NCBI GenBank assembly: GCA_902774285.1
Contig: CACYHO010000002.1
Coordinates: 27,023 to 91,022 of the forward strand
From: an uncultured Pseudomonadota bacterium
GTDB taxonomy: Bacteria; Pseudomonadota; Alphaproteobacteria; Rs-D84
DNA length: 64,000 bases
Reading direction: 5' to 3'
Shown one piece after another: positions 9,805 to 54,130 of the stretch; positions within the stretch are counted from its first letter, which is position 1; every line of letters begins with the position of its first letter. A program made the translations under genes and the position numbers. A model generated the notes under the pieces. That model saw only the letters and a program-made list of their open reading frames with translations, searched no databases and was not told where the DNA came from.

Positions 9805-9908
9805 TATTACACAAAAACAGTATTAATTTTATACATAAAATCGATTTTTAACATTAAATCGTCTGGACTTTTTTGGCTAAATATTGTATAATTAATGTCA
9901 CTTACCCA

Positions 9909-9982
9909 GCGGGCATGGTATAATGGTAGAACGAAAGCTTCCCAAGCTTTAGACGAGGGTTCGATTCCCTTTGCCCGCACCA
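9909..9982 (+). tRNA. tRNA-Gly, anticodon CCC, with encoded CCA
   Basis: Hand-folded cloverleaf. Acceptor GCGGGCA/TGCCCGC, anticodon stem AAAGC/GCTTT with loop TTCCCAA, T-arm GAGGG-TTCGATT-CCCTT, 3' ACCA. Confidence 0.85.
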
Positions 9983-22009: not shown

Positions 22010-22063
22010 TTCTTCTCTCTTTTTTTAGTATTATATCACTTTTTGCCATACCATTGCAAGAAT

Positions 22064-22663: not shown

Positions 22664-22681
22664 AATACTGTTCCTTTTTAA

Positions 22682-31092: not shown

Positions 31093-34000
31093 TTAGTCCA
31101 CATTTACCGATGCATCGTGTGCATTATAGACTTTGTTACCAATTGCAACACGCAATTTCTTTGAAGAACCATTGTGAATCGGAACATTTTTATCTTTTGT
31201 TAACATTATGTACATTGGGCTGCCCCTTGTTCCAAACACTAATACTGCCCCAGCAGGTTTTTCTGCATACATACATATTTTGTCGTCGCCATTACCGATA
31301 TGTAACCATTTACCAGATTGACATTCAAATTCCCATTTTGCCCATAATGCTTTGTTACCAGTTGAACCCTTGGCAATCTGTGTAACAGGGTTGCCATTAA
31401 ATTCAGGGTTATCATACCAGCCAGCAAAGTTATAAGCTGTCTTGGTTGGTGTTCCAAGCGTTATGGTATCTGTTGCAACAGTATATGTTTCCAGTGCATC
31501 ATCATACGTTCCACCATCAAGATTATATGTTATTGTATAAGTATGCGCTTCACAAGTCGCCAGCGTGTTCGCAGAACCAAGCAACGCTGTTGTTGATACA
31601 TCTGCACCAGGGGTTACATCATAACCGGTTTTGCAACTTGTTGGTTCGCAGGTCCTTGTTCCGTCTTTGTAAACATGGCCTGTAACTGATTTCGCATTCG
31701 GCACATCTAATTTGTTACATGTGCGATAGCACTGATCAATTGATGTTGCTAATGCGACAGATTTTGGATGTGATAATGGACAAGATTGACATACGTTATT
31801 ACCGTCCAGATACTGGCCAGCCGCACAAGTTATCCAATGTGCATACAAATCAACGTCACCAACAAATTCAGATTCTTCTGTTACCTCTGTTCCATTTGCA
31901 GTAAACCAACCAATAAATTTATACCCGTCTTTTGTTAAGTTTGGCAATGTTAATTCGGCCAATCCATAATTATCTGCCGCAGATTCTTTATAATTAATAT
32001 TTTGTGTTTCTGTTTCGTCGCCGTTATGATAGGTCACAATTGCATAACAAGATTCATGTGTATCATTAGAACCCTTTACAGAATGAGGATACACGTCGCC
32101 ACAACCATCGCACATAACCTTGTTTTGTAAATTTTCACGATTCAACCAATCTGGCATATAATTCGTGTACATATTCGTTGGACATGATATTGCGATTTGG
32201 GTGTTATTAAACATAGAAGTTGTCACATCTATATTATTAGTATTTGTTAAATTCGTACTCAAGAACCCATACGGTATATAATCAGGCTCATCAGAATCAG
32301 TTAGTACAGCTGGGCTAAATTTTTTCAAATTTATGCAACCATCAAATGTGGACCCAAATAAATACGGAGAAACACTGCCTGTCAAATTACTAAATAGGTT
32401 AACAGGGACTTTTGTCAAACCGCTACAACCAGAGAATGTGCCAAAAAACATCGACCCTGCCGAACCAGAAACACCTTGACCATTTGCATTAACAAACAAG
32501 TGTTCCGGTATTGATTTTAAACCACTGCAACCTTCAAAGGTGTTATAAAACATATAACTTGCCGCGCCAGAAACACCTTTAAACAAGTCTTCTGGCAATG
32601 ATGTCAGTCCGCTACAACCGCTGAATGTGCTTTCAAACATATAATCTGTCGCGCCAAAAACATCTGTAAATAATGTTGAATTACCATTTTCATCAATTGG
32701 CAGAGATGTTAATCTAGTACACCCCTTGAATGTTTGACTAAACTGTGGTTGTTGTGACGGATCATTTGAACCATCATTTAATGTCGGGAATATCGCACTT
32801 AATGAACCGGATATAGATACAATTTTTTTAGGATTCGACCCATAGTCTCTACCAAAATGTATGGTTGGCACGTTCTGCGTCATACTATATTGTTCTGCAA
32901 TTCCAGCATATTTAATAGTGTGTTCAGTACCAGATTCCCATATGCAATTATATTCATACATATCTGTGTTTTGTTTATCTATAACGCCAACTTGTTTTCC
33001 AGTATTATTAAAGTTTCCACCCGTGCCACAATCTATATAAAATTCGCCAAATGCACTAATCCATGTAGAGAAGGTTCCGCCGTCGTCAACCGTAGTCACA
33101 GTAAATTTTGCAGGGATACAGTGTTTATTTTCATTGTTGTCTGTATATTCTATGTTGTTTTCATCACATAGATATTGTGCGTATAATGTGATATCGCGCG
33201 CAATACTTGTGTCCACAGAATCTACACGATTACCGTTTTCATCTTGCCATTCTGTAAACTGGAAACCATCATGTTCTGGTATTGGCAAACGTGCTATTGT
33301 GGCCATTCTGACATTATATCCTGTTGGTTCTATTGTGTTTCCACCATCCGTATTATAATATACATGGTAAGCAACCGGCGTATAAACACAGGTATTTATG
33401 CCGTTGCTGTATTTACGCCCAGCAACAGTGTAATGTTCACGTTCTTCACAAAGTTTGTAACAATCATCGGCAGACTTTGCACCAACATCCGACAATGGAT
33501 AATCTTCATCACAGGACATGATAATATTTGGTGTATTTGAATACGCGATAGTTCCACCAGGGCAATATACACCATCGCCTGCACATTGCGCACATTCTGT
33601 TGAATTGGCCATCAAATAATATCCAGGATCACAATGTGTAGTTACAAGTGTAAATTTAGCATAGAATGTTTTTGCACCCCTGATGTTTGCATTTGGCGCA
33701 TAACCATTGGTAGATGACGAGAAGACAGAATTATTATAACGCAAATACCAACGTTCAAAATTATATCCAGGAACATTTATCTGACTTTTTGTTGGCAATC
33801 TGATACCGTTGCTTGCCGTGTATTTTGCAGACCCCAAGAAACTCAAATCTATTTCATTACCGTCAGTATCATATCCCTTGTAGAAAACATCATATTCAAC
33901 ATCGGCATAAGATATTACTGGGGTACATGTAATATCGCTGCTTTGTATTGCCATCGTTCCAGTATATGTTTGTCCGTTACATGTCCATCCAGTTATACTG

Positions 34001-34470
34001 CCAACAGTTATTTCGCATTCTTCTGTTGTTGGGACATTTACATTTGATTCAACAAAGCCTGTGCGTTCTATTGTTTTGTCATCTGTACAATTATATGTTA
34101 TTGTTCTGATATCTGGATTCTTAATCCATTTAACATATAATTTTATATTCTTGTAATTTGCCATTGCCCCAGAAATACTGGTTACAGTAGCACCACTTGT
34201 GGAATTCAAACGCCATCCATTGAATGTGTAATCTGTTTTTGTTGGCACATATAAAGTCGTTTCTGGTGTTTCAATATTATATGTTTGTGGATTCGTCAAA
34301 CCAGTATCCAATGAACCACCATCCATGTAATACGTAATAGTATATGATTTTGGAACACAAATATTGCTGTTCATTGCGTAATGATTATCACAATTGCATT
34401 GTGCAACAAGACCGCCAGCGCTTGTTGAATGAGCAGGGCAAGCTTCACAACTGTCAGTGGTTGTATTCAA
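31093..34470 (-). CDS. C-terminal segment of the giant repeat surface protein (Flg_new repeats, one FYIDCG + BspA-LRR module, Cys-rich modules)
   Basis: This frame is open upstream to 34680, beyond the listed Met. It has no signal peptide of its own. Repeats carry GY.F.GW ... LYA.W, and LRR units look like F..TFSGCSGLTSLP. Confidence 0.75.
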   Translation of the reverse strand: MNTTTDSCEACPAHSTSAGGLVAQCNCDNHYAMNSNICVPKSYTITYYMDGGSLDTGLTNPQTYNIETPETTLYVPTKTDYTFNGWRLNSTSGATVTSISGAMANYKNIKLYVKWIKNPDIRTITYNCTDDKTIERTGFVESNVNVPTTEECEITVGSITGWTCNGQTYTGTMAIQSSDITCTPVISYADVEYDVFYKGYDTDGNEIDLSFLGSAKYTASNGIRLPTKSQINVPGYNFERWYLRYNNSVFSSSTNGYAPNANIRGAKTFYAKFTLVTTHCDPGYYLMANSTECAQCAGDGVYCPGGTIAYSNTPNIIMSCDEDYPLSDVGAKSADDCYKLCEEREHYTVAGRKYSNGINTCVYTPVAYHVYYNTDGGNTIEPTGYNVRMATIARLPIPEHDGFQFTEWQDENGNRVDSVDTSIARDITLYAQYLCDENNIEYTDNNENKHCIPAKFTVTTVDDGGTFSTWISAFGEFYIDCGTGGNFNNTGKQVGVIDKQNTDMYEYNCIWESGTEHTIKYAGIAEQYSMTQNVPTIHFGRDYGSNPKKIVSISGSLSAIFPTLNDGSNDPSQQPQFSQTFKGCTRLTSLPIDENGNSTLFTDVFGATDYMFESTFSGCSGLTSLPEDLFKGVSGAASYMFYNTFEGCSGLKSIPEHLFVNANGQGVSGSAGSMFFGTFSGCSGLTKVPVNLFSNLTGSVSPYLFGSTFDGCINLKKFSPAVLTDSDEPDYIPYGFLSTNLTNTNNIDVTTSMFNNTQIAISCPTNMYTNYMPDWLNRENLQNKVMCDGCGDVYPHSVKGSNDTHESCYAIVTYHNGDETETQNINYKESAADNYGLAELTLPNLTKDGYKFIGWFTANGTEVTEESEFVGDVDLYAHWITCAAGQYLDGNNVCQSCPLSHPKSVALATSIDQCYRTCNKLDVPNAKSVTGHVYKDGTRTCEPTSCKTGYDVTPGADVSTTALLGSANTLATCEAHTYTITYNLDGGTYDDALETYTVATDTITLGTPTKTAYNFAGWYDNPEFNGNPVTQIAKGSTGNKALWAKWEFECQSGKWLHIGNGDDKICMYAEKPAGAVLVFGTRGSPMYIMLTKDKNVPIHNGSSKKLRVAIGNKVYNAHDASVNVD

Positions 34471-34643
34471 ATATTGATTTCGTTCACATGGTTCACGTGT
34501 CCATTGTGCAGTTAATTCTTTATTACCAGATGCTCCAGCTGGAATTTCTGTGACGACTTTATTGTTATTATCAACCCAACCAGCAAATACATAGTTAGCA
34601 CGTGTAATATTGTCTGATGTTGGTAATAATACCGTGCCACTGT

Positions 34644-34880
34644 TTATATTATATGTTGCAACAGGTGTATAACCAATTCTTTATTTCCTGTTGAACCCTG
34701 TGCAACCATATCAACAGCAGAACCAGATAATGCTTCGTTGTCATACCAGCCCGCAAAAGTGTATCCGTTGCGGACAGCATTCTGTGGTAATATTATATCA
34801 GCAGAATTAACAGTATATTGTTTCTGTGGATATGTTGTACCACCGTTTGAATGATATTTTATAGTGTATCTTTGTATATC
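34644..34880 (-). pseudogene. Out-of-frame Flg_new repeat joining the middle and C-terminal giant-gene segments
   Basis: A third frame reads YTIKYHSNGGTTYPQKQYTVNSADIILPQNAVRNGYTFAGWYDNEALSGSAVDMVAQGSTGNKEL. That is a complete canonical repeat, reachable only by one frame change at each end. Confidence 0.7.
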
Positions 34881-37800
34881 CAGTATATGTTACAACACAA
34901 CCATTATTCACAATGTCACCACTGGACTTCGTTGTTCCATCGGCCAATTTCCAATTAACAAATGTATAACCATTACGAACAGGTGCGTCTGGCAATGTAA
35001 AATCACTACCATATTCGCAACTGCCATTGTCTATCAAAGTGCCACCGTTTTCATTCCAATCTAATATTATTGTGTTTGCTACACAGCTTTCACCATTATC
35101 ATTATAACCTTCATTACATACACATTCTGTTGCTAATCCACCATTGCTTGACGAATTGACAGGGCAATCAATACACACACCATCTTGTATATATTGATTT
35201 GCTTCACAAGTCAAAGGTTTTACCTTGGCCCATACTGTCATATTGTTTGCCACACTGCCAGCAACACCTGTCGTGGTCGCACCAGAAAGACTTGAATTAG
35301 AATACCATGCTATAAACCTATAATTAGGAATATTAACATCTGCTTTATTTGGATATGCTACCGATTGCCCGATGGTTCTTTTTGTATAACGTTCTGCAAA
35401 CATATCAGATATATCATGAACGACACCATCAACATCTTTGAATTTGTAAACTATATTGTATTCTATCAATTCGATGTCGGCAAAGAAATGCAAGTCCCCA
35501 AATGACGAACCTTGCTCAATTGTTTTTGTGGTTTCACAGTTTTCTGTCAATTCTGCATTCGTGCACCATGCATTGAATTTATATCCAGCCACAGACGGGT
35601 TATTCAATGTGAATGTTGGTGTTTCTTTAGTATATGTTGTTCTATTAGCAACTGTTTTACCGTATGGTATTGTATAAGATATACTATATGGAATCGCTTC
35701 CCATTTTGCATACAATACAACTGTTGCATTATTATCCGGGGTCAATCTTGAAACAGTTCCTTTGTCAGTATAAACTTGATCAGAGCAGGTGGCAGTATTA
35801 CACCAGCCAACAAAATTATAACCAGATCTTGCATAATGATTTTCAGGCAATTGTGTTTCCGCGGTATATTGTAAGTTTTCAACGGCATCCACATTACCAG
35901 ATTCAGCACCATTACCATCGAATACTATATTATATGTATTAACTGTTGTCTGGGCCACACATCCAACATCGTGATTTGGCATCTTATTATTATCAACAAA
36001 ATTATCACCACAGTTCCATGCTGTTAATGTATGACCAGGATTATTACAACGTGCATAATCCAGCAATTCAACATCATCGTTATATTCCATACCACCAACA
36101 ATTATGTTATTACCATTGTCACAATCATATGAAATTGCATATTGTTCAATATCCCAATTTGCATGCATTGTAACAACACCTGATTCAGGAACATTATCGT
36201 TAATTTTGCGTTCATTATTATCGATGCGAATATCGTTATATTCGTTTCCTTTGTTATCTATCCAACCAATAAATGTTCTGCCTTCAACAGCGGTTGGAAC
36301 GCACAATGGCACAGCATTTCTTTCAGCAATATGATATGTTTGTACATCACAATTTTCAGATCCTTCGTATTCTATATCAGCCTTGTACCAACAAACATCG
36401 CGTGCTGTTTGACCGTAACGAATCTTGCTGTGTTCAGAATCAATTACATAATTACCATATGTTGCATCACACGGTACATAACAATAATCGCGAGATGGTG
36501 CGCATCCGCCAATTTTATCAGAACCTGGGCATTGACTGTCTGTCGTTACCATAGCATACGAACCAAAATCCGCCCGACAAGCTCTAATTCCTTGATCCGT
36601 TGTTGCGTTGTAAACATAGTCGCCAGCCGCAAAACCAGTACAATAAAATCCAACAGGGCAATTTGTACATTTATCATAATCTCCGGCTTTAAGGTATGTT
36701 CCTGGCTCGCATGCTATATTATCTTGTAATTTCCATTGTGCATACATAGTTATATCTGATAATTTTTCTTTTACTGTATCGCCGACATTATATGTTTCGT
36801 TCTCATTTGATTTCCAGCCATTGAACATATAACCTTTTCTTACATATGTGCTTTCTGGCATTGCACAACCAGTAGAATACGGGCAAGACATTGATCCCAC
36901 AGCATCAGCATTTGTGACATACATAGAATTTGGGTTAAATGAAACATTAAATTGTATTTCTTCCCAAGGGCTTGGCACACAAGATACATCATATGTTACA
37001 TGCCAGTTTTCCACAGAGTCTGTAGGAACATAATGTGTTTCTAAATTTGCATCAACATACGAACATGTCCAACCTGTAAATATCCAACCAGTGCGCGAAC
37101 AAATCATTGAATTACCAGTATTGGAAACGAATGTATAAGGATCAGCATATATCAAACTATCAGTATGTACAATATCGCCATTATCATCGCAACGATAAGT
37201 TATTTCATATGTTTCCGGCACCCATGATGCATAGAATGTTTTTGAACCAATTGAATTTTGCGGAATTGATGTTATTATATTGCCAGTTAATTCAACGTTA
37301 TCGTACCAGCCGGCAAAATCATAACCAATTCTTGACGCATCATACAATGTTACATCTTGTGTAGTGTTATAAGTTGACGGATTTTGATCATCATTAGATG
37401 CATTTGCAACACAATCTGACGAACTGTCTGGACATAATACATATTGTATTTGATATCCATATGTACATGTTGATATATCATCCCCATTAACATCATAATA
37501 CGCATGGCCACCTAGTTCTGACACATACGTTCCGCCCAAAGAATCAGTTGCAGGGCAGGCCGTGTAACATTGATTAATTGTATCATTCGAACCAGATACC
37601 GATGTATAATTGTTTGGACATGGATCACACCATGGTCTGCCCGCGGCACTAAATATACCATTAGTTTGTGATTTTTGGTTTTTATATGTTCCCTCAGGAC
37701 AATTTGACTTAAAAGCCGTACTTGCGAACATATCTGTTACTAATCCAGTCGCACTGGTTGTAATATTATCCAAGAAGAATCCAGGTATATAATTTAATGT

Positions 37801-39705: not shown

Positions 39706-39806
39706 ACCAGAACAATTAGAATGTGCTTGCGAACATACCTTCTGCTGTGCTGGTTATACCAGAGAATGTATTCAAAGGTATTGTACCATTCAAACCAGAA
39801 CAATTA
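39631..39806. repeat. Perfect 88-bp tandem duplication (2 x 88 bp) inside an LRR unit
   Basis: 39631-39718 and 39719-39806 are identical base for base when read by eye. The junction reads TTC TAA TTG on the minus strand, and that TAA is the stop of the 39716-52165 ORF. Confidence 0.9.
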
Positions 39807-42800: not shown

Positions 42801-45800
42801 ACATAGAATGTCCCAGCAGCTGCAATCATGAATTGGAATTGCTTATCATCATCTGGGATAACAATATCCATCCAGAACTTACGTGGATAACAAGTCCCCA
42901 AATATTCAATTTCTGTTGATGAACAAATACCGGTTAACAATGTCCATTTTGCATATAATTCTTTATTACCAGTTGAACCGTGTGTAATTTCTGTAATACG
43001 GGTATCAAATGTTGATTCTGCAAACCAACCATCAAATGTATATCCTGTCTTTGTCGGATCTGCCAAAGTTATTGTTTCACTGTTGACATTATAACTTGAT
43101 GGGTTGTTTGCATTATTTGTTCCATCATCAAGGTTGTATGTAATTGTGTATGTGTTTTGACTCCATTTCGCATATAATGTTAAGTCGACATTTGTGACAC
43201 TGGAACCCGATGCATATACAACCCCACCATCGGCCGATGTTGCCCAACCACCAAAAGAATATCCTGTGCGGTTTGGTTCACAAAGTGTTGTTGTACCAGA
43301 ATAGGTTGTATTATCACATCCAGAACCACCATCTAAATTATATGTTATTGTGTACGTGTTTGGATTACAACTTGGTGATGTGCTAACTTGCGAATTTGTA
43401 TTCCCATAGAACGTTCCAGATTGTTCACCATTTGTATTATAATATTCAACGCAAGTATATGTGTATTTACAACGATTTGGATCATCAGATACGATCGATT
43501 CACAAGATGCTACACTAACATCATGCAGACATCTACAATTACTAAATTTTGCATACCATGTTGTATCGGCAGTAGTTGATACTGTACTTCTTAACAATCC
43601 ATCTGCCTGTATTTTTTGCACATTATTGCTGTCATAATACCCTTGGAATAATCCTGATGTGCTTGTTGGGATTGTCACAGATGTTATCGTGTTGCCATTG
43701 GCGTCTGTCCATCTGCTGTTATATATTTCTTTGATGGTTCCCATACCACCAGATCCGCCATTTGTCACATCATCTAATGTCACGGTGTATGTATTTGATG
43801 TCCATTTTGCATATAATGTTTGATCGCCACCACTTAAATCAGCAGATGTATTTAATGGGTTCCCAGTATATGCCAAACTGGTATACCAACCAGCAAATGT
43901 AAATCCATCGCGCACAGGTATTGGGAATTCGTCTGACACACAAGCATCATCAAATTCGGCAGCATGCATCTTTGGATTTGCTATTACACCACCGGCACAG
44001 CTGATCGCACAGTTATTAGTGCATTCAGACATTGTGTTAGAAAATACCCATGTATCACTTGCCGAAGTCGAAACATTGCTGTTATTATCAACAAAAGATT
44101 CAACTTTGCACCAACAATTATTACCAGACGCAGTAGTATTTGGATTGCCAACTGTTCCTGCACTAGCGGCCGATGTTGTGCTGCACCATGATTTACCATT
44201 GATGGTACCGTATGTCCATTCTACCGCCCAATCACCATTGGACAAATCGTCAAACAACGCGTTATTGCAATCTTCGCTTATTGCTGTATTACCATTATCG
44301 CCTGCATAACAATAAGTGCCGTTTAATCTTTTGCTTTTGAACATCACCATTTCAGCATCTGTTTCATCTATTATCGCAGATAAACATGTGCCCATATTGC
44401 CACCATCATTATAATAATAATTTCTGTCAGCGATTGTGTTCCCACCATATGTATTAAATGAAATTGTTGCATAGCACTGTTTTTTCATCCATGCGGCGCG
44501 TTGTGAATGAGTATAGGCACCGTTTGTTTCCACAGAACAAGATTTATAAGTATCACTTACATCAGTTGTTACGTCACCTGTTTCAAGATCAGTCAAATTA
44601 CCATATACAGATATTGCCCCAATATTGTTTGAATAAAATTCTCTTTCTTCTTCTTCCATATTTTCATTATTTATCACTGCGTCATATGTTGCAGTATAGT
44701 AACCCGCGTCACCTTCGGTACATACATATGGTGCCCCCATATGTGATTTGATTGTATTAATAACATTTGTTGTACATGTTGAATCACCATCACATTGATT
44801 TATCTGGCTTGCAATTTGCGTTTCAAAATCAATATCAGATTGTGGGATATAATAACCATTGGCACATAATACAATGTCATAAAAACCAAGTGCAGCACCT
44901 GGCAGCAACGGCAAACAATTTGTATAAGCATGTGTAGTTGAATCATATGCACATGATGTCGTACTCATTGCATTTCTTGTGTTTGCAGGCAAAGAGCTGT
45001 CATAATTTTGGTCTGCCGAGATAGAATAACCAAAATTGGAAGTTTCAATTACAGATTGTTTACCATATACAAAACCAGCAGCACAATCTCCTTCTGTATC
45101 AGACAACTCTATGTCACCAGACAACCAAGGTAACGTAGCATAACCAGTGATTGAATATGCGCCTTCTTGGGCATTTGTTGTTGTCGGACAGTCTATTTTA
45201 CCTTGATCAATATTAGTTATTGTGATTGGACCACCCGGACAATAATAACCACCTCCGTAACATTCTTCACAATCGTTACCATTTGTTGTATTTTCCGCTC
45301 TGACATAATATCCCGGCGGGCAGGTTATACGTGTCCATTTTGCATATAGTTCTTTGTCACCATACATATCTGATGTGATTTTGTTTATTGTATTACCGTT
45401 ATCATCATACCAATAACCAGAAAACACATGATCCGCCACATTAACATTTGTTGGCAGGTTGATGGTGCTGCCCGTTGTATAAGAGGTCGGATTAAGGCCG
45501 TTTATTACTTCGCCATTATAACTTGTTTTATATGTAATAGTGTATGTGTTTGGTGTCCATTGGGCAGTAAATCTTACCGTTCCAGATGTTGCGCGCAAGT
45601 TTTTAAATGTTTTTGCCGTTATTCCAGATAAACTGGTTGCGTTGGTTGTTGATGAACCAATAGTATGTTCCGTATCATCCATACCGGTTATATTCCATCC
45701 GGCAAAAGTATATCCATCGCGGGTTGGACCCGATTTCGTAAAACTGGAGTTATAGGTCGCATTAGAACTAGTGATACTGCTGTTACCGTCATTTAAATCT

Positions 45801-48800
45801 GTTTCAACCGTGTATCGATTTGCGGTCCAATTAGCATATGCTGTTATATTGCCGTTTGTTGTATAAACAGCATCCAATATATTTCCAGAAGAATCTATGT
45901 ATTGTGTTCCGTTACCACTAGTGGAAAAATTATACCCATTAAATGTGTATCCCAAGCGGGTTGGTAATGTTATTGGTGTTGACAGGCAATTTGCAGAGGT
46001 TCTATTTTCAGCAACAGACGCATCAGCGGCATAATAAGTGCAAGGATTATTGCTTTCATTATAACGATACCAGAATTCAGACACATTTGACGATGTATTT
46101 GCGCCATTATCTTGCAATGTAACCTTATAAACGAGTGGTTCCCAATGTGCATATAATGTAATAGCTGCAGACGGAGTATAGCGAGAAGGCCCAATATATG
46201 TCGAACCTGAAGTACACCTGGCGACACAATTACCACCGTTTTGTGTTTCATACCAACCAAGGAAATTGTATCCATCGCGGGTATTTACAACTGGTGGATA
46301 AACATATTGTGGTTGCCATTGTGCGTGCCATACATTATTATTTGTGGTATATAATTTTCCTGCGTTTCTACCATCAGTTGTCATATATCCAGCGCCAGAA
46401 ATATATTGTGTTCCACCAGTGACATCGCTGTAATAACCGTCAAATTCGTAAGTTGACTTTGTATTATCGTCAGTCAAAGCATTTTTTATGCTTCCGCCAT
46501 TTGCATTATAAGATACGGTTATATAATCAGAACGTTGCGGTATTATTATTGGGTTTGAAGAATTCACAATTGTTGTGCGTGCACTGTCCAAATAAACGTT
46601 TGTATTATATGTTGTATAAATGGTGGCAGTACCATTTGTAGTCGCGTTTGCATTATCCAATGTAATTGCATATCCATTTGGATCACAACTTGGCGATGTG
46701 CTGGATTGTGAGTTTGTATTCCCATAAAATGTTCCAGATTGTGCGCCGTTTGTATTATAATATTCACGACATGTATATGTGTATTTGCAACGATTTGGAT
46801 CATCAGATGCGATTGATTCACAAGATGCTACACCAGTAGCAGTTGTACACACACAATTACTAAATTTTGCATACCATGTTGCATTGGCAGTGATTAATGT
46901 TTTATTTGTTAAAGCCCCATTGGCTGATATTTTTTGTACATTATTGCTGTCATAATATCCTTGGAATAATCCTGATGCACTTGTTGGGATTGTCACAGAT
47001 GTTATTGTGTTGCCATTGGCGTCTGTCCATTTGTTGCCATATATTTCTTTGATGGTTCCCATACCACCAGATCCACCATTTGTCGCATCATCCAATGTCA
47101 CAGTGTATGTATTTGGTGTCCATTGGGCATATATTGGGAAACTACGAGTTGAATCAGACGCTTCATCATCCAATTCACCAGTGTCATCATCTTCACTATC
47201 ATAGCCAATATAACCATTCCGTGTTATCATCAAGTTTCCGCCAGTTTGTGCATCAAAATATCCATTAAATGTATATCCAGTGTAATCTGGTACCGATTTG
47301 CCACATTGTGAAGTTGTTATATTATAATCATCCCATGCCTCTATTGTCGCTGCATCATCACAGTATATACCGGAAGTTAAATCGCTTCCATAGTCAGCAT
47401 TACCGCTTGATACCGCATACATATATTGAGGAGTTGGCGAACCACCCCTTGCGTACAATGTAACAGTATAAACAGGAACCCAACGCGCATATAATGTCAC
47501 ATTTGCGTCTGTCTTGTTCCAAGTGCGCACAGGAGAACCTTTGCGGGTATAATATGCAGTGCCACCTGTTGCCGCAGATGTATCATACCAACCACCAAAC
47601 GCATATCCAGATCTTGTCGGTTTTGTTGTTGACGACAATGTCGGCATTGATTGACCATATATCGCAGGATCACTGACAGTAGGTGCCGTTCCATCGCCAC
47701 CATTTAAATTAAATGTCAAATTTGAAGCCTTCGCTATCCATCGGGCATATATCGTGAAATTACCGCTAGATTCACCAGCCAAATAATCAATATCGTCACC
47801 ATCTACAGAAGTGTAACCTGTTTCACTGATAACCTGATGCCCACCACTTTGTGTATTATAATATCCATCAAATGTATATCCAGTACGTGTTGGCACCGCA
47901 AGTATAGAGTTTCCTTGTCTATCTTTGTAATCTGTTATAAGCTTATTAGACGCGTTTACTGTTGCGGCTGCATCAAAATATACACCAAACGAAATACCAT
48001 CATATTCATAGTCTTCTGAGACGGCATACATATATTGGGTTGGTGAACCACCATTTGCGTTCAATGTAATAGTATAAACAGGGACCCAACGCGCATATAA
48101 TGTCACATTTGCGGCTGTCTTGTTCCAAGTGCGCGCGGAAGAACCATCGCGACGATAATATTGTGTTCCGTCGCCAACATCAGGGTCGTCCCACCAACCA
48201 CCAAACGCATATCCTGTTTTTGTTGGTTTTGTTGTTGACGACAATGTCGGCATTGATTGACCAGCTGTTGCAGGACCAGCTGTTGGTGCAGTACCAGTTC
48301 CGCCATTCAAATTAAATGTCAGATTCGAAGAAGCCAATGTCCATTTGGCAGTAAATGTTTTACCACTTGTATAAGTCCATTTGAACGCAGTACCTGCTGG
48401 TCTGTCAGATGTTCCATCATTCCAGCCTGCAAATGTATAACCCGTCTTTGCACATGTGTTATTAGCATCTGGTGTAAAGTTAGCATTATATGTAGCCGTA
48501 CCATTAGTAGGCGGATTACCGGTCGCGCCAGTTCCACATGCATATTTTACGGTATATGTATTGGCTGCGCAAGTTGAAGCAGTTCCTGGGAAGCCCCTGT
48601 CAACAGAGCCAAGCAAAGCAGCACGATACGCTAGATTATCATTGTCGTCTGCCATAAGGCGATACGCACAAATAAACGAACAATCCCCCGCACAATAATG
48701 ATTTTGATCAAAATTATTGGTTAACACCCAAGAAGAAGATACCTTTTGCCAGTTTTCACCGTCTGCTGTATATCCATCAATATGACACCAACAATGTCCC

Positions 48801-51800
48801 GCGTCAGTATCATATGGCCGATCATTAATTGAAGATTGTGTCGAAAATGTAGAATTTGTACCATTAAAATTGACCGTTCCCGATGTTGTGCTGCACGCAG
48901 CATGACCGCGGATTATACCACGATCACCATAATTTACCGCAAATGAATTATTATCACCAGCAGTCAGGCCATAGAAACTTGGATCATGATTTGTGTATTC
49001 CTTATAATTAGCATTATAATTCGCATCGATACTTGCCTGACTTTCAGCCGCACCCGTTCCAATTATGTCTACTAAATCTACAGCAGAGCCTGGATTAAAT
49101 GTATAACCCGTATCACATGTGAATTTAGAATGATATGTTTTGTCACCAATGGCTGTTGTAGATATGGTTTGTGTCGTGGCACAGTTTGTTAATCCGGCAT
49201 CCAAGCACCATTTATCAAATGATCCATGCGCTTTTGATGGTGTCGCATTGATTGTTGCGCCAGTGCCAACAGTATATGTTGTTGTCGGTGTTAAACCAGT
49301 CAATGTCATTCCACCGTCCATATACGTGATGTCATATGTATTTTTTACCCATTTGGCTGTTAATGTTATTGTGTCGGTACGATACTGACTACCTGCTGCA
49401 GTTGCTATAGATTCGCCAGCAGAATATATCTGTTTTTCTTCACACAGTCCATCGTTGATATCAAGGACACAGATCCAACCATCAAATGTATAACCTGTCT
49501 TTGTATAAGTATTTGCCGGTGCAGCAGTGCAATTTCCGCCATATGTACACGTCTGATTTGCTGGTGTTGTTCCACCAGTATTTCCATAACCATAATACTT
49601 TACATAAAATGTGTTTACTGTCCATTGTGCATATAATGTTGTGACGGATGTATTATCATAATTCTTTACGGATGCCCCATTTTTATCGTAATATTGTGTT
49701 CCACCACTTGTTGCAGTGAAATAACCATTAAATTTATATCCTGTGCGTGTCGGCAAAGTTATCGGTGTTGGCATCGCAGAACCATATGTCGCCGTCACAG
49801 ATGTTGTACCCGCCGTAGCATCTGAAGCATTTTTATTCAATGTAACAGTGTATGTGCTTGGGGCGTTTTGTGTCCATTTTGCGATCAAAGTGACTTCGTC
49901 TGTATTTGTATAATGATTGGCTATATAATTTGCCACTGACGATACATTTATCGAACCAGATGACGATATCCATTGTTCTGTTTGATAATTTGCATCATAA
50001 TATCCTGCAAAAGTATATCCAGAAAGTGTTGGTGGTGTAGTACTACTTATATTTCCGCTGCTGTTACCCTGAACCAAGTTAACGTTTGAATCATACATAT
50101 TACCATTTGACAAAGCATACAAAATATTTTTAGTGCCGGTTCCACCGTTATGATTCAAACGAACCTTGTAATATTTTGAATTACATGCTGTGTTAGTATT
50201 TGCCCATTTGGCATATAACACCAGATTACCAGATTGATTGGAAGAGTTTGTAACAGCATTGCCTGAAAAGTTCGCTGTTTTATACCAACCAACAAATTCA
50301 TCGTTTGCCTTTGAAACATCAATCAAACGAACCGCATAGTTTCCATCAGATTCATACTGATATTTAACGACAACCGGTGGATTACAGTTGTTTTGCATAA
50401 ATGTAACCGTCGCATAACAGTCGTTTATGCTGACCGCACCAATGTCTGAATTAGGGAAGGTTGATGGACAGTTTGAACATGTTGTTGAATTTGCATATTG
50501 CCCGGGTGAACAAATCGTCGCATTTTCACATCCTGACAATGTGTTATTATAACATCTGCCACAAACAGCACCACTAATATGCTTAATAAACAGCTTATCT
50601 TGGTAGGTCAATTTCCGCATATTAGCCGGACAAGATTCGCTTAATACGGGTGTGACCTTAACACCATTTACATACTCTGGTGCGGTAAAAGAATGAAATG
50701 CGGACGTACTAGAACCGATATCATATCCGGTATCAGCAAAATTAGTAATCAGAGATTCAGAAACATAATAATCACTTGCATCATACTTAGCCAACGCAAA
50801 CATATTTTTAAATGCCATTTTCGCTGGAACACCGCTTAACCTATTAAACAATGTTTCCGGCAAACCATGTAATCCATCGCCAGATAAACCGGCACCACGG
50901 AATGTGTCATAAAACAACCCATATGATGGTGTTCCGTATATATTTCCAAACAAATCTTTGGGAATATATTTTAAATATTTTGCACCATTAAATGTATTAT
51001 AATACATATATGATTGTTGTTCACCCGCGATTGTTTCAAATAATGCAGGCTGAATTTCGGTTAAACCTTCATTGCCATAAAAGGTCCCATGGAACAAACC
51101 GGCGCTCGTTCCGTGCAACCCTGAAAATAAGCCGGTTGGAATATTTTGTATACCGGAACCAGAAAAAGTATATGCGAACATACAAATACCAGGCTCTCCA
51201 CTTACACCATCAAAAACATTTGCAGGTATCGATGTCATGTTTTTCGTGCCAGAAAAAGTTTCACGAAATATTGGTTGTTTATTACCATTGGTTAATGTTT
51301 TGAATATTTTTCCCAAACTTCCCGATACACTTTGTACTTTTTCTCCACTGCCACTTGCTATTCTGAATACATTCCATTTTGGGCATCGATTATAATTTGA
51401 ATCAGAAGTCTCTGTATTGTCCACCATAGATGCGCTTATTGCCAAATAATCCTCTACATCGCCACTAAATCTGATGATATGTTCGCCCGCCAAACTGTAC
51501 GAACACGTAACTGTTTGTTTGCCCGAACAACTATAATTACCGGAACTTGATGTACAATTGATACCTTTTATATAAACCTTTGCCACGGTTCCAGAGACCG
51601 TCGTGCTGAGATATTGCAGCGAATTTGCTTCACTGTAACTGGGTGTTCCACCTAAACCACAATCAACATAAAATGTTCCTTGTGCTGCACCACCAAACTC
51701 AAATGATATTGAAGTTGTAGAACTCGTCGTTTTAACACTGAAATATGCGGTTTTACATGTCCCGTTGAAATTAATCTCGTTCAAAGAACACGTGCTTGAT

Positions 51801-52165
51801 GCGGTACAGTTGCTGCCACTTCTGTTGCTTGTTCCACCACCACCAGAATATCCAGTTTTACATGTACAATATGTGGCACCTGCAGACGATGTTGCGTTCG
51901 AAGAACACGATGTACATGATGTAGCACTAGAATTTGGTTGATATGTTCCCGCCGGACATATTACACAGCCTTGGATCGTTCCACCCCCTGTAAGTTGGGC
52001 ACATGATGTCTTGTAATAGCCAGCACCACATGATGATGCCGTCGGATCGGTATCTCTACACATAGGTACCACATCAAGAGAGAACGCATTATTTGTTCCA
52101 AAAGCAACACACAACGCAAAAATTGCGCCATAGAAAAGACGTAAAAATCTGCGGAAAACCGCCAT
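39716..52165 (-). CDS. N-terminal 4,149-codon segment of the giant secreted repeat protein
   Basis: Signal peptide MAVFRRFLRLFYGAIFALCVAFGTNNAFS and Cys-rich CPAGTY..C..C modules. Three FYVDCG + BspA-LRR modules and dozens of Listeria-Bacteroides type repeats (NGG ... GY.F.GW ... LYA.W). Confidence 0.85.
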   Translation of the reverse strand: MAVFRRFLRLFYGAIFALCVAFGTNNAFSLDVVPMCRDTDPTASSCGAGYYKTSCAQLTGGGTIQGCVICPAGTYQPNSSATSCTSCSSNATSSAGATYCTCKTGYSGGGGTSNRSGSNCTASSTCSLNEINFNGTCKTAYFSVKTTSSTTSISFEFGGAAQGTFYVDCGLGGTPSYSEANSLQYLSTTVSGTVAKVYIKGINCTSSSGNYSCSGKQTVTCSYSLAGEHIIRFSGDVEDYLAISASMVDNTETSDSNYNRCPKWNVFRIASGSGEKVQSVSGSLGKIFKTLTNGNKQPIFRETFSGTKNMTSIPANVFDGVSGEPGICMFAYTFSGSGIQNIPTGLFSGLHGTSAGLFHGTFYGNEGLTEIQPALFETIAGEQQSYMYYNTFNGAKYLKYIPKDLFGNIYGTPSYGLFYDTFRGAGLSGDGLHGLPETLFNRLSGVPAKMAFKNMFALAKYDASDYYVSESLITNFADTGYDIGSSTSAFHSFTAPEYVNGVKVTPVLSESCPANMRKLTYQDKLFIKHISGAVCGRCYNNTLSGCENATICSPGQYANSTTCSNCPSTFPNSDIGAVSINDCYATVTFMQNNCNPPVVVKYQYESDGNYAVRLIDVSKANDEFVGWYKTANFSGNAVTNSSNQSGNLVLYAKWANTNTACNSKYYKVRLNHNGGTGTKNILYALSNGNMYDSNVNLVQGNSSGNISSTTPPTLSGYTFAGYYDANYQTEQWISSSGSINVSSVANYIANHYTNTDEVTLIAKWTQNAPSTYTVTLNKNASDATAGTTSVTATYGSAMPTPITLPTRTGYKFNGYFTATSGGTQYYDKNGASVKNYDNTSVTTLYAQWTVNTFYVKYYGYGNTGGTTPANQTCTYGGNCTAAPANTYTKTGYTFDGWICVLDINDGLCEEKQIYSAGESIATAAGSQYRTDTITLTAKWVKNTYDITYMDGGMTLTGLTPTTTYTVGTGATINATPSKAHGSFDKWCLDAGLTNCATTQTISTTAIGDKTYHSKFTCDTGYTFNPGSAVDLVDIIGTGAAESQASIDANYNANYKEYTNHDPSFYGLTAGDNNSFAVNYGDRGIIRGHAACSTTSGTVNFNGTNSTFSTQSSINDRPYDTDAGHCWCHIDGYTADGENWQKVSSSWVLTNNFDQNHYCAGDCSFICAYRLMADDNDNLAYRAALLGSVDRGFPGTASTCAANTYTVKYACGTGATGNPPTNGTATYNANFTPDANNTCAKTGYTFAGWNDGTSDRPAGTAFKWTYTSGKTFTAKWTLASSNLTFNLNGGTGTAPTAGPATAGQSMPTLSSTTKPTKTGYAFGGWWDDPDVGDGTQYYRRDGSSARTWNKTAANVTLYARWVPVYTITLNANGGSPTQYMYAVSEDYEYDGISFGVYFDAAATVNASNKLITDYKDRQGNSILAVPTRTGYTFDGYYNTQSGGHQVISETGYTSVDGDDIDYLAGESSGNFTIYARWIAKASNLTFNLNGGDGTAPTVSDPAIYGQSMPTLSSTTKPTRSGYAFGGWYDTSAATGGTAYYTRKGSPVRTWNKTDANVTLYARWVPVYTVTLYARGGSPTPQYMYAVSSGNADYGSDLTSGIYCDDAATIEAWDDYNITTSQCGKSVPDYTGYTFNGYFDAQTGGNLMITRNGYIGYDSEDDDTGELDDEASDSTRSFPIYAQWTPNTYTVTLDDATNGGSGGMGTIKEIYGNKWTDANGNTITSVTIPTSASGLFQGYYDSNNVQKISANGALTNKTLITANATWYAKFSNCVCTTATGVASCESIASDDPNRCKYTYTCREYYNTNGAQSGTFYGNTNSQSSTSPSCDPNGYAITLDNANATTNGTATIYTTYNTNVYLDSARTTIVNSSNPIIIPQRSDYITVSYNANGGSIKNALTDDNTKSTYEFDGYYSDVTGGTQYISGAGYMTTDGRNAGKLYTTNNNVWHAQWQPQYVYPPVVNTRDGYNFLGWYETQNGGNCVARCTSGSTYIGPSRYTPSAAITLYAHWEPLVYKVTLQDNGANTSSNVSEFWYRYNESNNPCTYYAADASVAENRTSANCLSTPITLPTRLGYTFNGYNFSTSGNGTQYIDSSGNILDAVYTTNGNITAYANWTANRYTVETDLNDGNSSITSSNATYNSSFTKSGPTRDGYTFAGWNITGMDDTEHTIGSSTTNATSLSGITAKTFKNLRATSGTVRFTAQWTPNTYTITYKTSYNGEVINGLNPTSYTTGSTINLPTNVNVADHVFSGYWYDDNGNTINKITSDMYGDKELYAKWTRITCPPGYYVRAENTTNGNDCEECYGGGYYCPGGPITITNIDQGKIDCPTTTNAQEGAYSITGYATLPWLSGDIELSDTEGDCAAGFVYGKQSVIETSNFGYSISADQNYDSSLPANTRNAMSTTSCAYDSTTHAYTNCLPLLPGAALGFYDIVLCANGYYIPQSDIDFETQIASQINQCDGDSTCTTNVINTIKSHMGAPYVCTEGDAGYYTATYDAVINNENMEEEEREFYSNNIGAISVYGNLTDLETGDVTTDVSDTYKSCSVETNGAYTHSQRAAWMKKQCYATISFNTYGGNTIADRNYYYNDGGNMGTCLSAIIDETDAEMVMFKSKRLNGTYCYAGDNGNTAISEDCNNALFDDLSNGDWAVEWTYGTINGKSWCSTTSAASAGTVGNPNTTASGNNCWCKVESFVDNNSNVSTSASDTWVFSNTMSECTNNCAISCAGGVIANPKMHAAEFDDACVSDEFPIPVRDGFTFAGWYTSLAYTGNPLNTSADLSGGDQTLYAKWTSNTYTVTLDDVTNGGSGGMGTIKEIYNSRWTDANGNTITSVTIPTSTSGLFQGYYDSNNVQKIQADGLLRSTVSTTADTTWYAKFSNCRCLHDVSVASCESIVSDDPNRCKYTYTCVEYYNTNGEQSGTFYGNTNSQVSTSPSCNPNTYTITYNLDGGSGCDNTTYSGTTTLCEPNRTGYSFGGWATSADGGVVYASGSSVTNVDLTLYAKWSQNTYTITYNLDDGTNNANNPSSYNVNSETITLADPTKTGYTFDGWFAESTFDTRITEITHGSTGNKELYAKWTLLTGICSSTEIEYLGTCYPRKFWMDIVIPDDDKQFQFMIAAAGTFYVDCGADGTLTSNADPTDVDNLHGTRIYRPDYPNKRIYTCTYTTAGTKTINFAGEAEGYGNGTETSISFNTMNFTSVGYTDSQLLQQDTNVKKINKIYGSLGSIFKTITNLSNNNWEAQPMFMETFAGGSEIEETIPANIFSGVTGTRIYMFESTFDGCSKLTGGVPDFSNISGAGQNRMFYRTFNGCSGLNGTIPSDAFLGINSAATEMFSGTFHNCSGLTGKVPSFKNIIGGADSMFAGTFYGCSGLNSTIPSDAFSGINSAAASMFAYTFSGCSGLTGNVPSFKNIVGGTGANNMFIATFFSCSGLNGTIPSDVFSGITGTARGMFAGTFYGCSNLNQMPDNNGVVHNYVDGSFLNNVYTAGTNYSTNNIMTDMFNDSGFDNPCPAGTYQVKSEFGSAASKPWCSPCPNNYTSVSGSNDTINQCYTTCPVTDTNNQGTYLSGNAYYVGEGVADDVSQCKYTYTITYNLDDGTNNANNPSSYNVNSETITLADPTKTGYAFDGWFAESTFDTRITEITHGSTGNKELYAKWTLLTGICSSTEIEYLGTCYPRKFWLDVVIPDDDKTFGFSIAAAGTFYVDCGADGTLTSNANPTDVDNLYGTRIYRPDYPNKRIYTCTYTTAGTKTINFAGEAEGYGNGSETSISFNKVNYTYSGYTGTQLLQDTNVKKINKIYGSLGSIFKTVSNLSNNNWKSQPGFGETFAGGSEIEGTIPTNIFSGVTGTRTMMFESTFEGCSKLTGGIPDFSNIHGEGKPSMFSGTFRNCSGLTGPISPDAFLGITSAASSMFAVTFYGCSGLTGSVPSFKNIVGGTGADNMFRHTFYNCSGLNGTIPSDAFEGINGTAQSMFDNTFAGCSKLTGRIPYFSNINGAGQSRMFFRTFQGCSGLSGPISPDAFLGINSAATEMFSGTFYGCSGLTGNAPSFKNIVGGADSMFRQTFSGCSGLSGVPSDAFSGINSAASGMFSGTFQNCSGLTGNVPSFKNIVGGTGADNMFANTFYNCSGLNGTIPLNTFSGITSTAEGMFASTF
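39720..43155 (-). repeat. Two tandem coding modules of about 1.74 kb (Flg_new repeat, FYVDCG domain, LRR block, Cys module)
   Basis: Equivalent positions are offset by 1737 bp, e.g. AATATTCAATTTCTG at 41164 and 42901. I count only 4 mismatches across about 240 nt (41164-41403 versus 42901-43140). Confidence 0.85.
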
Positions 52166-52359
52166 GTGTAGAATGCCTTCCTTTTATTCTTATAAAGAGT
52201 GTAGAAAAAAATCGTATGGTCTGTCTATTAAAATCGTGTATATACAATGCGTTTTTTTCATTTGACAGGATTTTGAAAAAATCATCAAAAATCATTTTTT
52301 ATTTTTAGCATTTTGTGATATGATGAAAACAAAATAAAAACAACGGGCAGGGGGTTATT

Positions 52360-52569
52360 ATGAAAGACGATGTAAGAATGCTGAAAACCAGCGAAATTTC
52401 AAGCGATGTTTTCGTTATTACGCCCGCTCAGATCGATATTATTTCTCAGCAATTCGGCGATGCGTTGGCGGAAGCGATGAATATCAGACCTTTGGCACAA
52501 AAAATCCGCATTATCGCGTCGGATATTTTGGTTAAAACCCTGCAGGGCGCCAAAACTATGGGCGAATAA
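52360..52569 (+). CDS. Small hypothetical protein, 69 aa, with atypical codon usage
   Basis: A GGGGG purine tract lies 6-8 nt upstream of the ATG. Third codon positions are much richer in G/C than in neighbouring genes. No motif recognised. Confidence 0.35.
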   Translation: MKDDVRMLKTSEISSDVFVITPAQIDIISQQFGDALAEAMNIRPLAQKIRIIASDILVKTLQGAKTMGE

Positions 52570-52614
52570 TACGTTTTTCACATTGAAAATAAAAAAATTA
52601 ATGCTATCATTCAC

Positions 52615-52932
52615 GCACCAGGCGCGAAAAAGCATAGCTTTGTTGCATTCGTCGCAACAAAGAGGAAAGTCCGGACTGCGTGGGACAACATAGTGGCTAA
52701 TTACCACACGGGGCAACCCGATGATCAGAGCAGCAGAGACGAGCGTGTTAAGTCACGGTGAAACGGGCAATCTCTATGTGCAGCAACCTTAAGTAAGATT
52801 CCAAGACCGTCCCAGTCGTTAACGGAATCGGGTAGAGGGCTTGACATTTTGCGGTAACGCAATTTGCAGATTAATTATGCTTGGCAACCATTTCGGTTGT
52901 TACAGAATCCGGCTTATTGAACGCCTGGTATT
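52615..52932 (+). ncRNA. rnpB: RNase P RNA, bacterial type A, compact
   Basis: Conserved GAGGAAAGTCCGG (52662-52674) and ACAGAATCCGGCTTA (52902-52916). The P1 pairing is ACCAGGCG (52617-52624) with CGCCTGGT (52922-52929). Ends are approximate. Confidence 0.85.
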
Positions 52933-54119: not shown

Positions 54120-54130
54120 TTGTACAATCC

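Follow-up and report, generated by a model that had tools for sequence, protein, structure and literature searches.

The 64,000-nt stretch of contig CACYHO010000002.1 analyzed here (the window) carries, at 31093-52165 on the minus strand, a locus for a giant repetitive protein. In the open reading frame (ORF) listing of the window, the locus is divided into three minus-strand ORFs arranged head to tail: ORF1 (39716-52165, 4149 amino acids [aa], ATG start), ORF2 (34807-39705, 1632 aa), and ORF3 (31093-34470, 1125 aa). The intervals are 10 nt between ORF1 and ORF2 and 336 nt between ORF2 and ORF3. An earlier reading of the letters of the window (the sequence-only reading) had given these lengths with gaps of 10 and about 340 nt, and its coordinates were exact. 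At the base composition of the window, a stop is expected about every 16 codons, and the probability of 4149 open codons by chance is approximately 1e-119.

The repeat sequences run across both interruptions. The junction of ORF1 and ORF2 lies within a leucine-rich repeat (LRR) unit, and the LRR frame carries on in ORF2 after the shift. The gap between ORF2 and ORF3 had been read as encoding the same repeat type in another frame, which was borne out: the stop-to-stop piece at 34647-34889 (minus strand) matched a local hidden Markov model (HMM) of the Flg_new repeat with an E value of 1e-20 in another frame. A Shine-Dalgarno-like sequence, AAGGAAGG, was read by eye at 52176-52183 (minus strand), 10 nt upstream of the ATG at 52165. 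Inspection by eye also identified a Sec-type signal peptide without a lipobox (aa 1 to 29; 52079-52165, minus strand). The signal-peptide-like start, MAVFRRFLRLFYGAIFALCVAFGTNNAFS followed by LD, is present on ORF1 only among the three ORFs, as had been proposed. No hydrophobic segment of transmembrane quality was found in the protein beyond the signal peptide, and promoter and terminator scans performed no better than shuffled controls.

Comparison with other assemblies indicated that the three ORFs belong together. An exact-sequence look-up of SecA identified a 267-kb contig (L001) of another metagenome assembly (ERZ27280243), in which the gene upstream of the identical secA is called as one 7030-aa product (P0017). 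The 90%-identity cluster of ORF1 has four members, namely, P0017, a 7239-aa protein (P0018), and ORF1 and ORF3 of the window. Over the last approximately 10 kb of the gene, the window differs from L001 by three indels (+88, -41, and -67 nt) and one single-nucleotide polymorphism (SNP), and all three indels are out of frame relative to the 7030-aa version. In the 16 kb beyond the gene, the window is 100% identical to the intact version. When the 88-nt insertion was removed and the missing 41 and 67 nt were restored, 31093-52165 became a single open frame of 7030 codons, whose translation differs from P0017 at one residue. In a third assembly, identity is 100% over a whole 9.6-kb contig, which contains the final 3.6 kb of the gene together with secA and a portion of dnaE.

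P0018 is 99.76% identical to P0017, with 17 substitutions and otherwise only two in-frame insertions. The first insertion adds 59 aa at aa 4118, giving LRR units in the order A-B-A-C instead of A-C. The second is an exact tandem duplication of 149 aa at aa 5748, corresponding to a 447-nt unit of two Flg_new repeats. At the DNA level, the assemblies thus agree over the final 10 kb of the gene, and at the protein level over its full length. Because the corrected frame of the window matches P0017 at all but one residue, the three ORFs are parts of a single giant gene, about 7,000 codons long, in this lineage. The single gene of that size proposed by the sequence-only reading therefore exists in intact form, as 7030- and 7239-aa versions, in other assemblies.

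Frame breaks

The break between ORF1 and ORF2 is made by an 88-nt extra segment (39719-39806, minus strand), in which a 90-nt LRR unit is duplicated minus 2 nt to give the order A-A-C. The two other breaks are gaps relative to the intact gene on the same strand. In P0018, a 447-nt unit is duplicated in tandem; the 41-nt gap (34879-34880) adjoins the 5' edge of this unit, and the 67-nt gap (34675-34676) lies inside it, 13 nt from the position at which the contig of the third assembly ends. The three indels, at aa 4120, 5733, and 5815, occupy the same two spots at which P0018 and P0017 differ. Since all of them fall at two repeat hot spots where assemblies disagree, the breaks are quite likely artifacts of short-read assembly at tandem repeats. 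The perfect 447-nt tandem repeat is longer than typical short reads and k-mers, and repeat-rich giant genes are fragmented or misassembled in short-read metagenomes (bioRxiv 10.1101/2023.11.21.568195).

Two observations weigh against an assembly artifact. The 41- and 67-nt deletions are flanked by no microhomology, unlike a classic de Bruijn collapse, and the 88-nt junction, with its 2-nt loss within a TATA run, requires k-mers absent from the intact version; for these two reasons, the breaks may be real in this population. Judging from their MEGAHIT-style contig names, all of the assemblies compared seem to derive from short reads, and the true repeat copy number is uncertain. If the gene were truly broken in this strain, three out-of-frame indels would have divided a once intact giant gene into a secreted N-terminal fragment of 4149 aa and two remnants, untranslated or separately translated; the result would be either a pseudogene of recent origin or an off state of phase variation. 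The breaks are present in the deposited contig, where ORF1 and ORF3 are recorded as separate proteins. Loss also occurs in the clade, as one relative (L004) has three consecutive ORFs at the locus and another lacks the gene. However, a single SNP stands against three indels over 21 kb, and the complete identity of the 16-kb flanks, the coincidence of all indels with two spots of assembly disagreement and an exact tandem repeat, and the end of an independent contig next to one of them make a real disruption rather unlikely. Programmed frameshifting was rejected, as the breaks are indels of 88, 41, and 67 nt and not slippery sites.

Domain architecture

Domains were mapped with local HMMs, and aa coordinates refer to the corrected 7030-aa protein; all nucleotide positions are on the minus strand. 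The signal peptide is followed by a Cys-rich region with one Ephrin_rec_like repeat (PF07699; aa 30 to 130; 51776-52078). Supermodule 1 (aa 152 to 560; 50486-51712) consists of a divergent PKD-like domain (51437-51712), about five LRR units, and a Cys-rich tail. It is followed by an array of five Flg_new copies (aa 586 to 1010; 49136-50410), detected by Pfam and by the local HMM, and by the first copy of a six-Cys domain, CWC (aa 1087 to 1171; 48653-48907). An array of 11 Flg_new copies with Cys-rich linkers (aa 1204 to 2272; 45350-48556) precedes the second CWC copy (aa 2644 to 2728; 43982-44236), which is apparently nested in a Flg_new-like repeat and whose core was modeled by AlphaFold2 with a predicted local distance difference test (pLDDT) score of 80 to 91. 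Four further Flg_new copies span aa 2740 to 3069 (42959-43948).

Three successive supermodules come next, each with a PKD-like domain, LRR units, a cap, and a Cys module. Supermodule 2 (aa 3107 to 3560; 41486-42847) has 8 LRR units and a Cys module of the form CPAGTY..CSPCPNNYTS, supermodule 3 (aa 3686 to 4250; 39328-41110) has 11 LRR units and holds the first frame break, and supermodule 4 (aa 4365 to 4845; 37543-38985) has about 7 LRR units. An array of 12 Flg_new copies with Cys-rich linkers (aa 4888 to 6013; 34147-37416) holds the second and third frame breaks. Supermodule 5 (aa 6369 to 6720; 32026-33081) is built in the same manner with 4 LRR units, and its PKD-like and LRR parts were modeled at a pLDDT above 90. 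The protein ends in a small β-domain, the C-terminal domain (CTD; aa 6955 to 7028; 31102-31323), a candidate surface-retention or export domain.

In total, the protein contains 37 Flg_new repeats, five supermodules, about 35 LRR units, two CWC domains, about ten further Cys-rich linkers, and one CTD, in agreement with the mosaic of dozens of Flg_new repeats that had been described. It has 216 Cys residues and a high Thr, Ser, Asn, and Gly content, and neither an LPXTG motif nor an RTX array was found in it. Recent duplicates include supermodules 2 and 3 as well as several of the LRR and Flg_new units, with identity reaching 97% over 183 nt.

The Flg_new repeats were recognized far above the cutoffs, as expected for the Listeria-Bacteroides repeat. 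The three ORFs scored 346.5, 163.3, and 129.5 bits with PF09479 (cutoff, 27) and 212, 92.7, and 60.9 bits with TIGR02543 (cutoff, 20.95). The last Flg_new copy was modeled at a pLDDT of 68 to 93 (mostly 79 to 93). InlB entries were the top Foldseek hits of the C-terminal model, but with nonsignificant E values of 0.4 to 1.4.

The LRR unit is 28 to 30 aa long with the consensus MFxxTFxGCSGLTGxIPxxxFxGI. The solenoid region was modeled at a pLDDT above 90 and has the generic features of the LRR superfamily. Pfam LRR_5 (PF13306) was absent from the three ORFs at E values of ≤0.01 and from an isolated 372-aa LRR block at E values of ≤10. A profile of the PKD-like domain plus LRRs, searched against all PDB sequences, returned plant LRR kinases, a cellulosomal scaffoldin, and a carboxypeptidase and no LRR_5 or BspA-like chain at E values of ≤1. 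Its weak match to the LRRs of plant FLS2 came through the LtGxIP motif, with a whole-sequence E value of 1.2e-5 and no single significant stretch. The PARCEL model TIGR02167 was marginal on ORF3 (31.3 bits against a cutoff of 30), reached 20.2 bits on ORF2, and gave nothing on ORF1; its alignment on ORF3 covers model positions 1 to 12 of 26, and the unit here is 28 to 30 rather than 26 aa. By these comparisons, the blocks are predicted to be LRR-superfamily repeats of their own subtype, not LRR_5. Of the earlier description as five BspA-type LRR blocks, the five blocks stand and the BspA type does not.

The domain preceding each LRR block had no Pfam match in the four window copies tested, even at E values of ≤10. 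It was modeled as a β-sandwich with a pLDDT above 90. An HMM seeded from a window copy recovered the equivalent domain in 120 sequences, and the counterparts in paralogues, many with a WGDG...HTY motif, pass the PKD_4 and PKD models (PF00801/PF18911; 34.8 and 33.9 bits against 27 for PKD_4 and PKD, respectively). Because this window-seeded HMM recovers paralogue domains that pass Pfam PKD and PKD_4, the domain is assigned, by homology, as a divergent PKD-like domain.

The second domain without a family is CWC, which is present in two copies and has about 90 aa with six invariant Cys residues. Its core was modeled as a five-stranded sheet with a C-terminal helix, and it had no match in Pfam, NCBIfam, or a PDB sequence-profile search, nor in Foldseek against PDB (E ≤ 0.001). 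In small paralogues, such as proteins of 210 to 246 aa composed of a signal peptide, Flg_new, and CWC, it forms the C-terminal domain, which ends in ...ALFGQ. A word-indexed homologue search with the short CWC profile returned only five proteins. The sequence-only reading had listed two unassigned domain types; both exist, and one of them, the PKD-like domain, proved assignable.

The Cys-rich modules, earlier likened to GCC2_GCC3, are present. With Ephrin_rec_like (PF07699, formerly GCC2_GCC3; cutoff, 23.1), the N-terminal copy scored 27.3 bits in isolation and 20.8 bits in the full ORF, and the CPAGTY..CDPCPNNYTS modules scored 16.7 and 12.4 bits, so that only the N-terminal copy rises above the threshold. 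The Cys-rich part gave short TNFR-like matches in Foldseek with E values above 1. A Foldseek search of PDB and BFVD with the C-terminal model of 662 aa returned nothing at an E value of ≤0.001, its sensitivity being limited by the multidomain query and low-confidence linkers.

The C-terminal domain

The last approximately 75 residues of the protein align with the C termini of many paralogues; two subtypes can be distinguished, with intermediates connecting them. When 1.84 billion representative proteins were searched exhaustively with a profile, the CTD was found in 1,146 protein clusters at an E value of ≤1e-3, a lower bound on the clusters that carry it, and in 388 at an E value of ≤1e-10; a word-indexed search with the same short profile returned only four proteins. 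The domain ends within 20 residues of the C terminus in 144 of the 150 best matches. Its carriers range from 74 to 6622 aa, and the passengers are Flg_new arrays, PKD-like domains plus LRRs, Cys-rich repeats, or nothing recognizable. The CTD is also kept in syntenic, otherwise very different genes of relatives. It was modeled as a small β-domain (pLDDT, about 85 to 93) and had no match in Pfam, NCBIfam, or Foldseek against PDB (E ≤ 0.001), and a PDB sequence-profile search gave only noise or the Flg_new part. A CTD that stays constant while its passengers vary is the hallmark of a sorting or retention element, for which this domain is a candidate.

The known export and anchoring types were not recognized. 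No Pfam family of autotransporter or trimeric autotransporter barrels or of YadA-type anchors was found on the ORFs or on the isolated C terminus. The protein has three scattered GGxGxD matches, no array, and a signal peptide, which does not correspond to the RTX type of the type I secretion system (T1SS). No Pfam or NCBIfam match of the CTD to a C-terminal domain of the type IX secretion system (T9SS) was obtained, and no such domain was among the Foldseek hits; to our knowledge, the T9SS is confined to Bacteroidota and relatives. The C terminus of the protein does not end in an aromatic residue. The statement that the protein has no anchor motif therefore holds for LPXTG, autotransporter barrel, T9SS, and RTX signals, but it was incomplete in that the conserved CTD had been overlooked. 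A polymorphic toxin was rejected, as a conserved C-terminal domain with a variable passenger is the reverse of toxin systems and as the gene that follows is secA rather than one for immunity.

Family distribution and locus variability

At least 320 homologues of the supermodule were found, and every one for which a source is given is a "hypothetical protein" of an "Alphaproteobacteria bacterium" metagenome-assembled genome (MAG), consistent with the earlier remark that the protein is poorly described. Most of them start with a signal-peptide-like hydrophobic N terminus. A survey of GTDB with one genome per species gave 284 matching stretches, of which 78 loci were listed. All 78 derive from uncultured MAGs, and the titles that name a source point to the animal or human gut. 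Their labels include Candidatus Enterousia, Alphaproteobacteria bacterium RGIG (goat, sheep, yak, and buffalo gut), uncultured Rickettsiales UMGS860, Hadza gut, and similar names. Some MAGs contain several loci, e.g., seven in RGIG3039 among the matches listed.

The DnaK of the window shares 89.7% identity with its counterpart in MAG KS320-82, which is listed as Enterousia (order Rs-D84) with a size of 0.876 Mb (PMC12306168). Based on this identity and that listing, the host is, as judged from one protein, related to Candidatus Enterousia. Genomes of Rs-D84/Candidatus Enterousia are 0.75 to 1.0 Mb and encode neither the tricarboxylic acid cycle nor respiration nor several of the glycolytic steps. 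These bacteria occur widely in the guts of ruminants, horses, chickens, and humans, and a partner-dependent lifestyle has been proposed for Rs-D84 (PMC12306168). If the host genome is of Enterousia size, the 21-kb gene would make up 2 to 3% of it.

Giants of the same domain grammar, less than 50% identical, were observed in other lineages: P0175 (6622 aa; 20 Flg_new, 4 PKD-like, and 23 LRR HMM matches), P0249 (3265 aa), P0219 (2640 aa), and P0275 (2349 aa). All four end in the CTD. The presence of CTD-ended giants in other lineages indicates that the giant format is recurrent and not a one-off.

The slot between rnpB and secA differs strongly among relatives. In L003 (identities to the window of 94.6% for SecA and 91.6% for DnaE), it holds a 5087-aa gene whose last 3280 aa match the giant in patches at 36 to 44% identity, with 25 Flg_new repeats, two CWC domains, and no PKD-like domain or LRR; it ends in the CTD. 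In L004 (GCA_017524525.1; SecA, 90.6%; DnaE, 88.2%), three ORFs of at least 1326, 406, and 2498 aa are present. The 2498-aa ORF was unmatched to the giant at an E value of ≤1e-30, and the CTD motif was seen by eye at its C terminus. In GCA_017511715.1 (L006 to L008), with identities of 95.4% for SecA and 93.6% for DnaE, the slot is empty. A more distant relative (SecA, about 79%) carries a CTD-bearing family member beside secA that is cut by the contig end. These results show that the rnpB-secA slot is hypervariable, with a turnover of its content far more rapid than that of the flanking core genes. This pattern fits a surface protein under diversifying pressure, through partner or host binding, phage, or immunity.

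An ORF in L004 ends just after a CWC domain, which is internal in the window gene. This suggests that the giant grew by fusion of paralogous genes, and a split in L004 is equally possible.

Further paralogues were observed at other positions. In GCA_017511715.1 (L006, 8064-9140), a 358-aa paralogue with a signal peptide, a Cys-rich part, CWC, and a Flg_new-like repeat lies on the other side of rnpB, between rnpB and the 249-aa ORF that follows the tolQ/tolR-like pair; the window has no counterpart there. In Enterousia MAGs (KS320-82 [L049, 198-4935] and L042), a PKD-like plus LRR paralogue lies between dnaK and trmD, which in the window are about 6 kb apart and separated by other genes. It seems that paralogues have repeatedly been inserted between core genes. 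No further paralogue was found elsewhere in the 64-kb window.

Neighboring genes

The locus is flanked by secA (28305-30935) on one side and by rnpB (52618-52932, plus strand) on the other. A tolQ/tolR-like pair (53715-54622) is followed by a 249-aa ORF without an assignment. The rest of the window encodes housekeeping functions, including a recN-like gene, xseA, tsaD, trmD, dnaK, pfk, gpmI, rsmH, dnaE, ruvB, a two-component pair, argS, and rplM. The core-gene neighborhood in an AT-rich alphaproteobacterium described by the sequence-only reading was supported, as was the lack of dedicated secretion genes nearby: no secretion or transporter gene was found in the 64 kb.

Several other features of the window were recorded. 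A 105-aa ORF (52399-52716, minus strand) overlaps the opposite-strand RNase P RNA gene (Rfam RF00010, 175 bits) and is almost certainly spurious. The 249-aa ORF after the tolQ/tolR-like pair (52969-53718, minus strand) had no Pfam match, and its position fits the earlier label tolA. Downstream of rsmH (19559-23200, minus strand), three conserved ORFs of 172, 199, and 816 aa scored below Pfam thresholds, the sole trace being a subthreshold TMD0_ABC match of the 172-aa ORF. The three keep their synteny in every relative examined, where the large one has 781 to 868 aa; the 816-aa ORF is about 36% identical to its counterparts in two more distant MAGs. Given their position after rsmH, the three ORFs may be divergent cell-division or cell-wall genes. 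At 9163-9982, a minus-strand ORF of 213 aa with an HNH endonuclease domain adjoins tRNA-Gly CCC (9909-9982), the only tRNA gene of the window. At about 56.7 kb, the genes change from minus to plus orientation, and the cumulative GC skew has its minimum at about 58 kb. These features could mark a replication origin or merely reflect coding-strand bias; no dnaA was seen nearby.

Discussion

The gene probably encodes one fast-evolving, fibrillar-adhesin-like surface protein of 7,030 residues or more in an uncultured gut alphaproteobacterium. The protein would be exported by the Sec pathway through its cleavable N-terminal signal peptide and, outside the cytoplasm, would fold into a long disulfide-stabilized fiber. 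In such a fiber, the 37 Flg_new repeats and Cys-rich linkers would serve as a spacer or stalk, and ligand binding would fall to the five PKD-like plus LRR supermodules and both CWC domains. The CTD would retain the protein on the cell or pass it to an export step, and the fiber would attach the cell to partner cells, the host surface, or particles. As in fibrillar adhesins, great length (7030 aa) is combined with tandem stalk domains (37 Flg_new repeats). Flg_new has been described as a stalk domain and LRRs as an adhesive domain (cluster 15) of fibrillar adhesins (PMC9210967). By this analogy, an adhesive role, as proposed by the sequence-only reading, is plausible.

Some of the results count against an adhesive surface protein. 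The LRR blocks are plausible adhesive units, and none of them passes a curated adhesive-domain model; in place of LPXTG, there is only the CTD. The CTD, CWC, and LRR block had no significant relatives by Foldseek or among PDB sequences, so that the roles assigned to them are guesses, and adhesion is deduced purely from domain types. No known anchor or outer membrane translocation device (autotransporter barrel, T9SS CTD, LPXTG, or RTX) was recognized in the protein, and secretion genes were missing from the 64 kb.

The main task of a secreted or surface protein of this kind could be other than adhesion, for example, a coat or S-layer-like shield, a phage or immunity decoy, or a scaffold for nutrient scavenging and binding. 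The lack of an adhesive domain above a curated threshold would be in line with this, the residue composition and the 216 Cys residues suit a structural coat, and many paralogues per small genome together with hypervariability are also expected from an arms race over phage receptors or decoys. Moreover, the host lacks standard transporters and has been proposed to be partner dependent (PMC12306168). However, LRR and PKD modules on long Flg_new stalks are the architecture of fibrillar adhesins and internalins (PMC9210967), and a coat would be expected to be conserved in all close relatives, one of which, with a 95% identical SecA, lacks the gene. A nonadhesive main function is accordingly considered improbable.

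That the 21-kb gene is an assembly chimera of shorter paralogues joined through shared repeats is highly unlikely. In its favor, standalone paralogues with the same modules are abundant (the family being mostly 450 to 880 aa), CWC and CTD are normally C terminal while CWC is twice internal here, the L004 ORF stops directly after CWC, and repeats within the gene reach 97% identity, but L001 equals the last 10 kb base for base except for the three indels and one SNP, P0017 equals the corrected translation but for one of 7030 residues, P0018 is colinear with P0017 over its full length apart from two in-frame insertions, the third assembly is identical across its 9.6-kb contig, random misjoins would not leave 7030 codons open, giants of 6622, 5087, and 3265 aa exist in other lineages, and most internal repeats are just 60 to 88% identical in DNA, too divergent to mislead an assembly at k = 141.

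Among known systems, the closest are the Listeria internalins (InlB and InlJ) and the fibrillar adhesins (PMC9210967, PMC8286594), which share with the giant the combination of LRRs with Flg_new (the InlB B-repeat) and a long, repetitive, predicted extracellular design. The LRR core of the giant has a conserved Cys comparable to that of InlJ, whose description includes a cysteine ladder, and InlB LRRs with the B-repeat were the best, though nonsignificant, Foldseek hit. In contrast to the internalins, the giant belongs to a Gram-negative host, has neither an LPXTG nor a GW anchor, and is about ten times larger, with additional PKD-like, CWC, and CTD domains. Its LRR units have 28 to 30 aa with an LtGxIP motif, whereas those of internalins have 21 to 22 aa, and they form five blocks along the chain instead of one N-terminal head.

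The BspA/TpLRR (LRR_5) and PARCEL (TIGR02167) repeats follow a similar motif logic, F..C..L....IP.....I...F, and occur in surface proteins of gut and mucosal microbes. The giant differs from them in the absence of an LRR_5 match, in a TIGR02167 match over 12 of 26 positions on ORF3 only, in its unit of 28 to 30 aa, and in a PDB profile search that yields plant LRR kinases and no LRR_5 structure. Giant adhesins of the T1SS (SiiE and LapA type) and of the type V secretion system are of a similar size class, have a stalk of tandem β-domains, and are presumed to act in attachment; SiiE is described as a 595-kDa protein with 53 BIg repeats. Unlike these, the giant has a Sec signal peptide, other repeat types, and no RTX array, β-barrel or YadA-type anchor, or adjacent transporter genes. 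The giant repeat proteins reported from metagenomes are likewise repeat rich and fragmented by short-read assembly, and they include Flg_new-containing giants of gut Clostridia for which host- or prey-surface binding has been suggested (bioRxiv 10.1101/2023.11.21.568195). The protein studied here comes from another phylum and a host genome that is probably below 1 Mb, has another domain set, and is far smaller than the cases above 30,000 aa. Giant, repetitive adhesin-like proteins with Flg_new and LRRs are thus already known, and the present one is not categorically new. The new elements are the domain combination, the LRR subtype, the two orphan domains, the setting of a small genome and a hypervariable slot, and a CTD family with over 1,100 clusters and no matching model in the Pfam and NCBIfam copies searched.

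A more far-reaching proposal can be offered only tentatively and is doubtful as a whole. The CTD may be the sorting or retention signal of an undescribed surface-display route specific to genome-reduced gut Alphaproteobacteria (Rs-D84/Candidatus Enterousia and relatives). The giant and its smaller paralogues would then be an apparatus for attachment to a partner microbe or the host epithelium, and the rnpB-secA slot would be a cassette site at which new binding specificities arise by fusion and duplication of paralogue modules.

For studies of such MAGs, the locus carries a practical warning, namely, that gene calls split giant genes at repeat-induced assembly errors, and its hypervariability is useful for strain tracking. 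The gene also provides handles on the surface biology of this lineage: lineage-specific PKD-like plus LRR surface modules, two orphan domains (CWC and CTD), and, in the CTD, a testable candidate sorting signal. Unless central to how the organism lives, a 21-kb gene that takes up 2 to 3% of such a genome would be difficult to account for.

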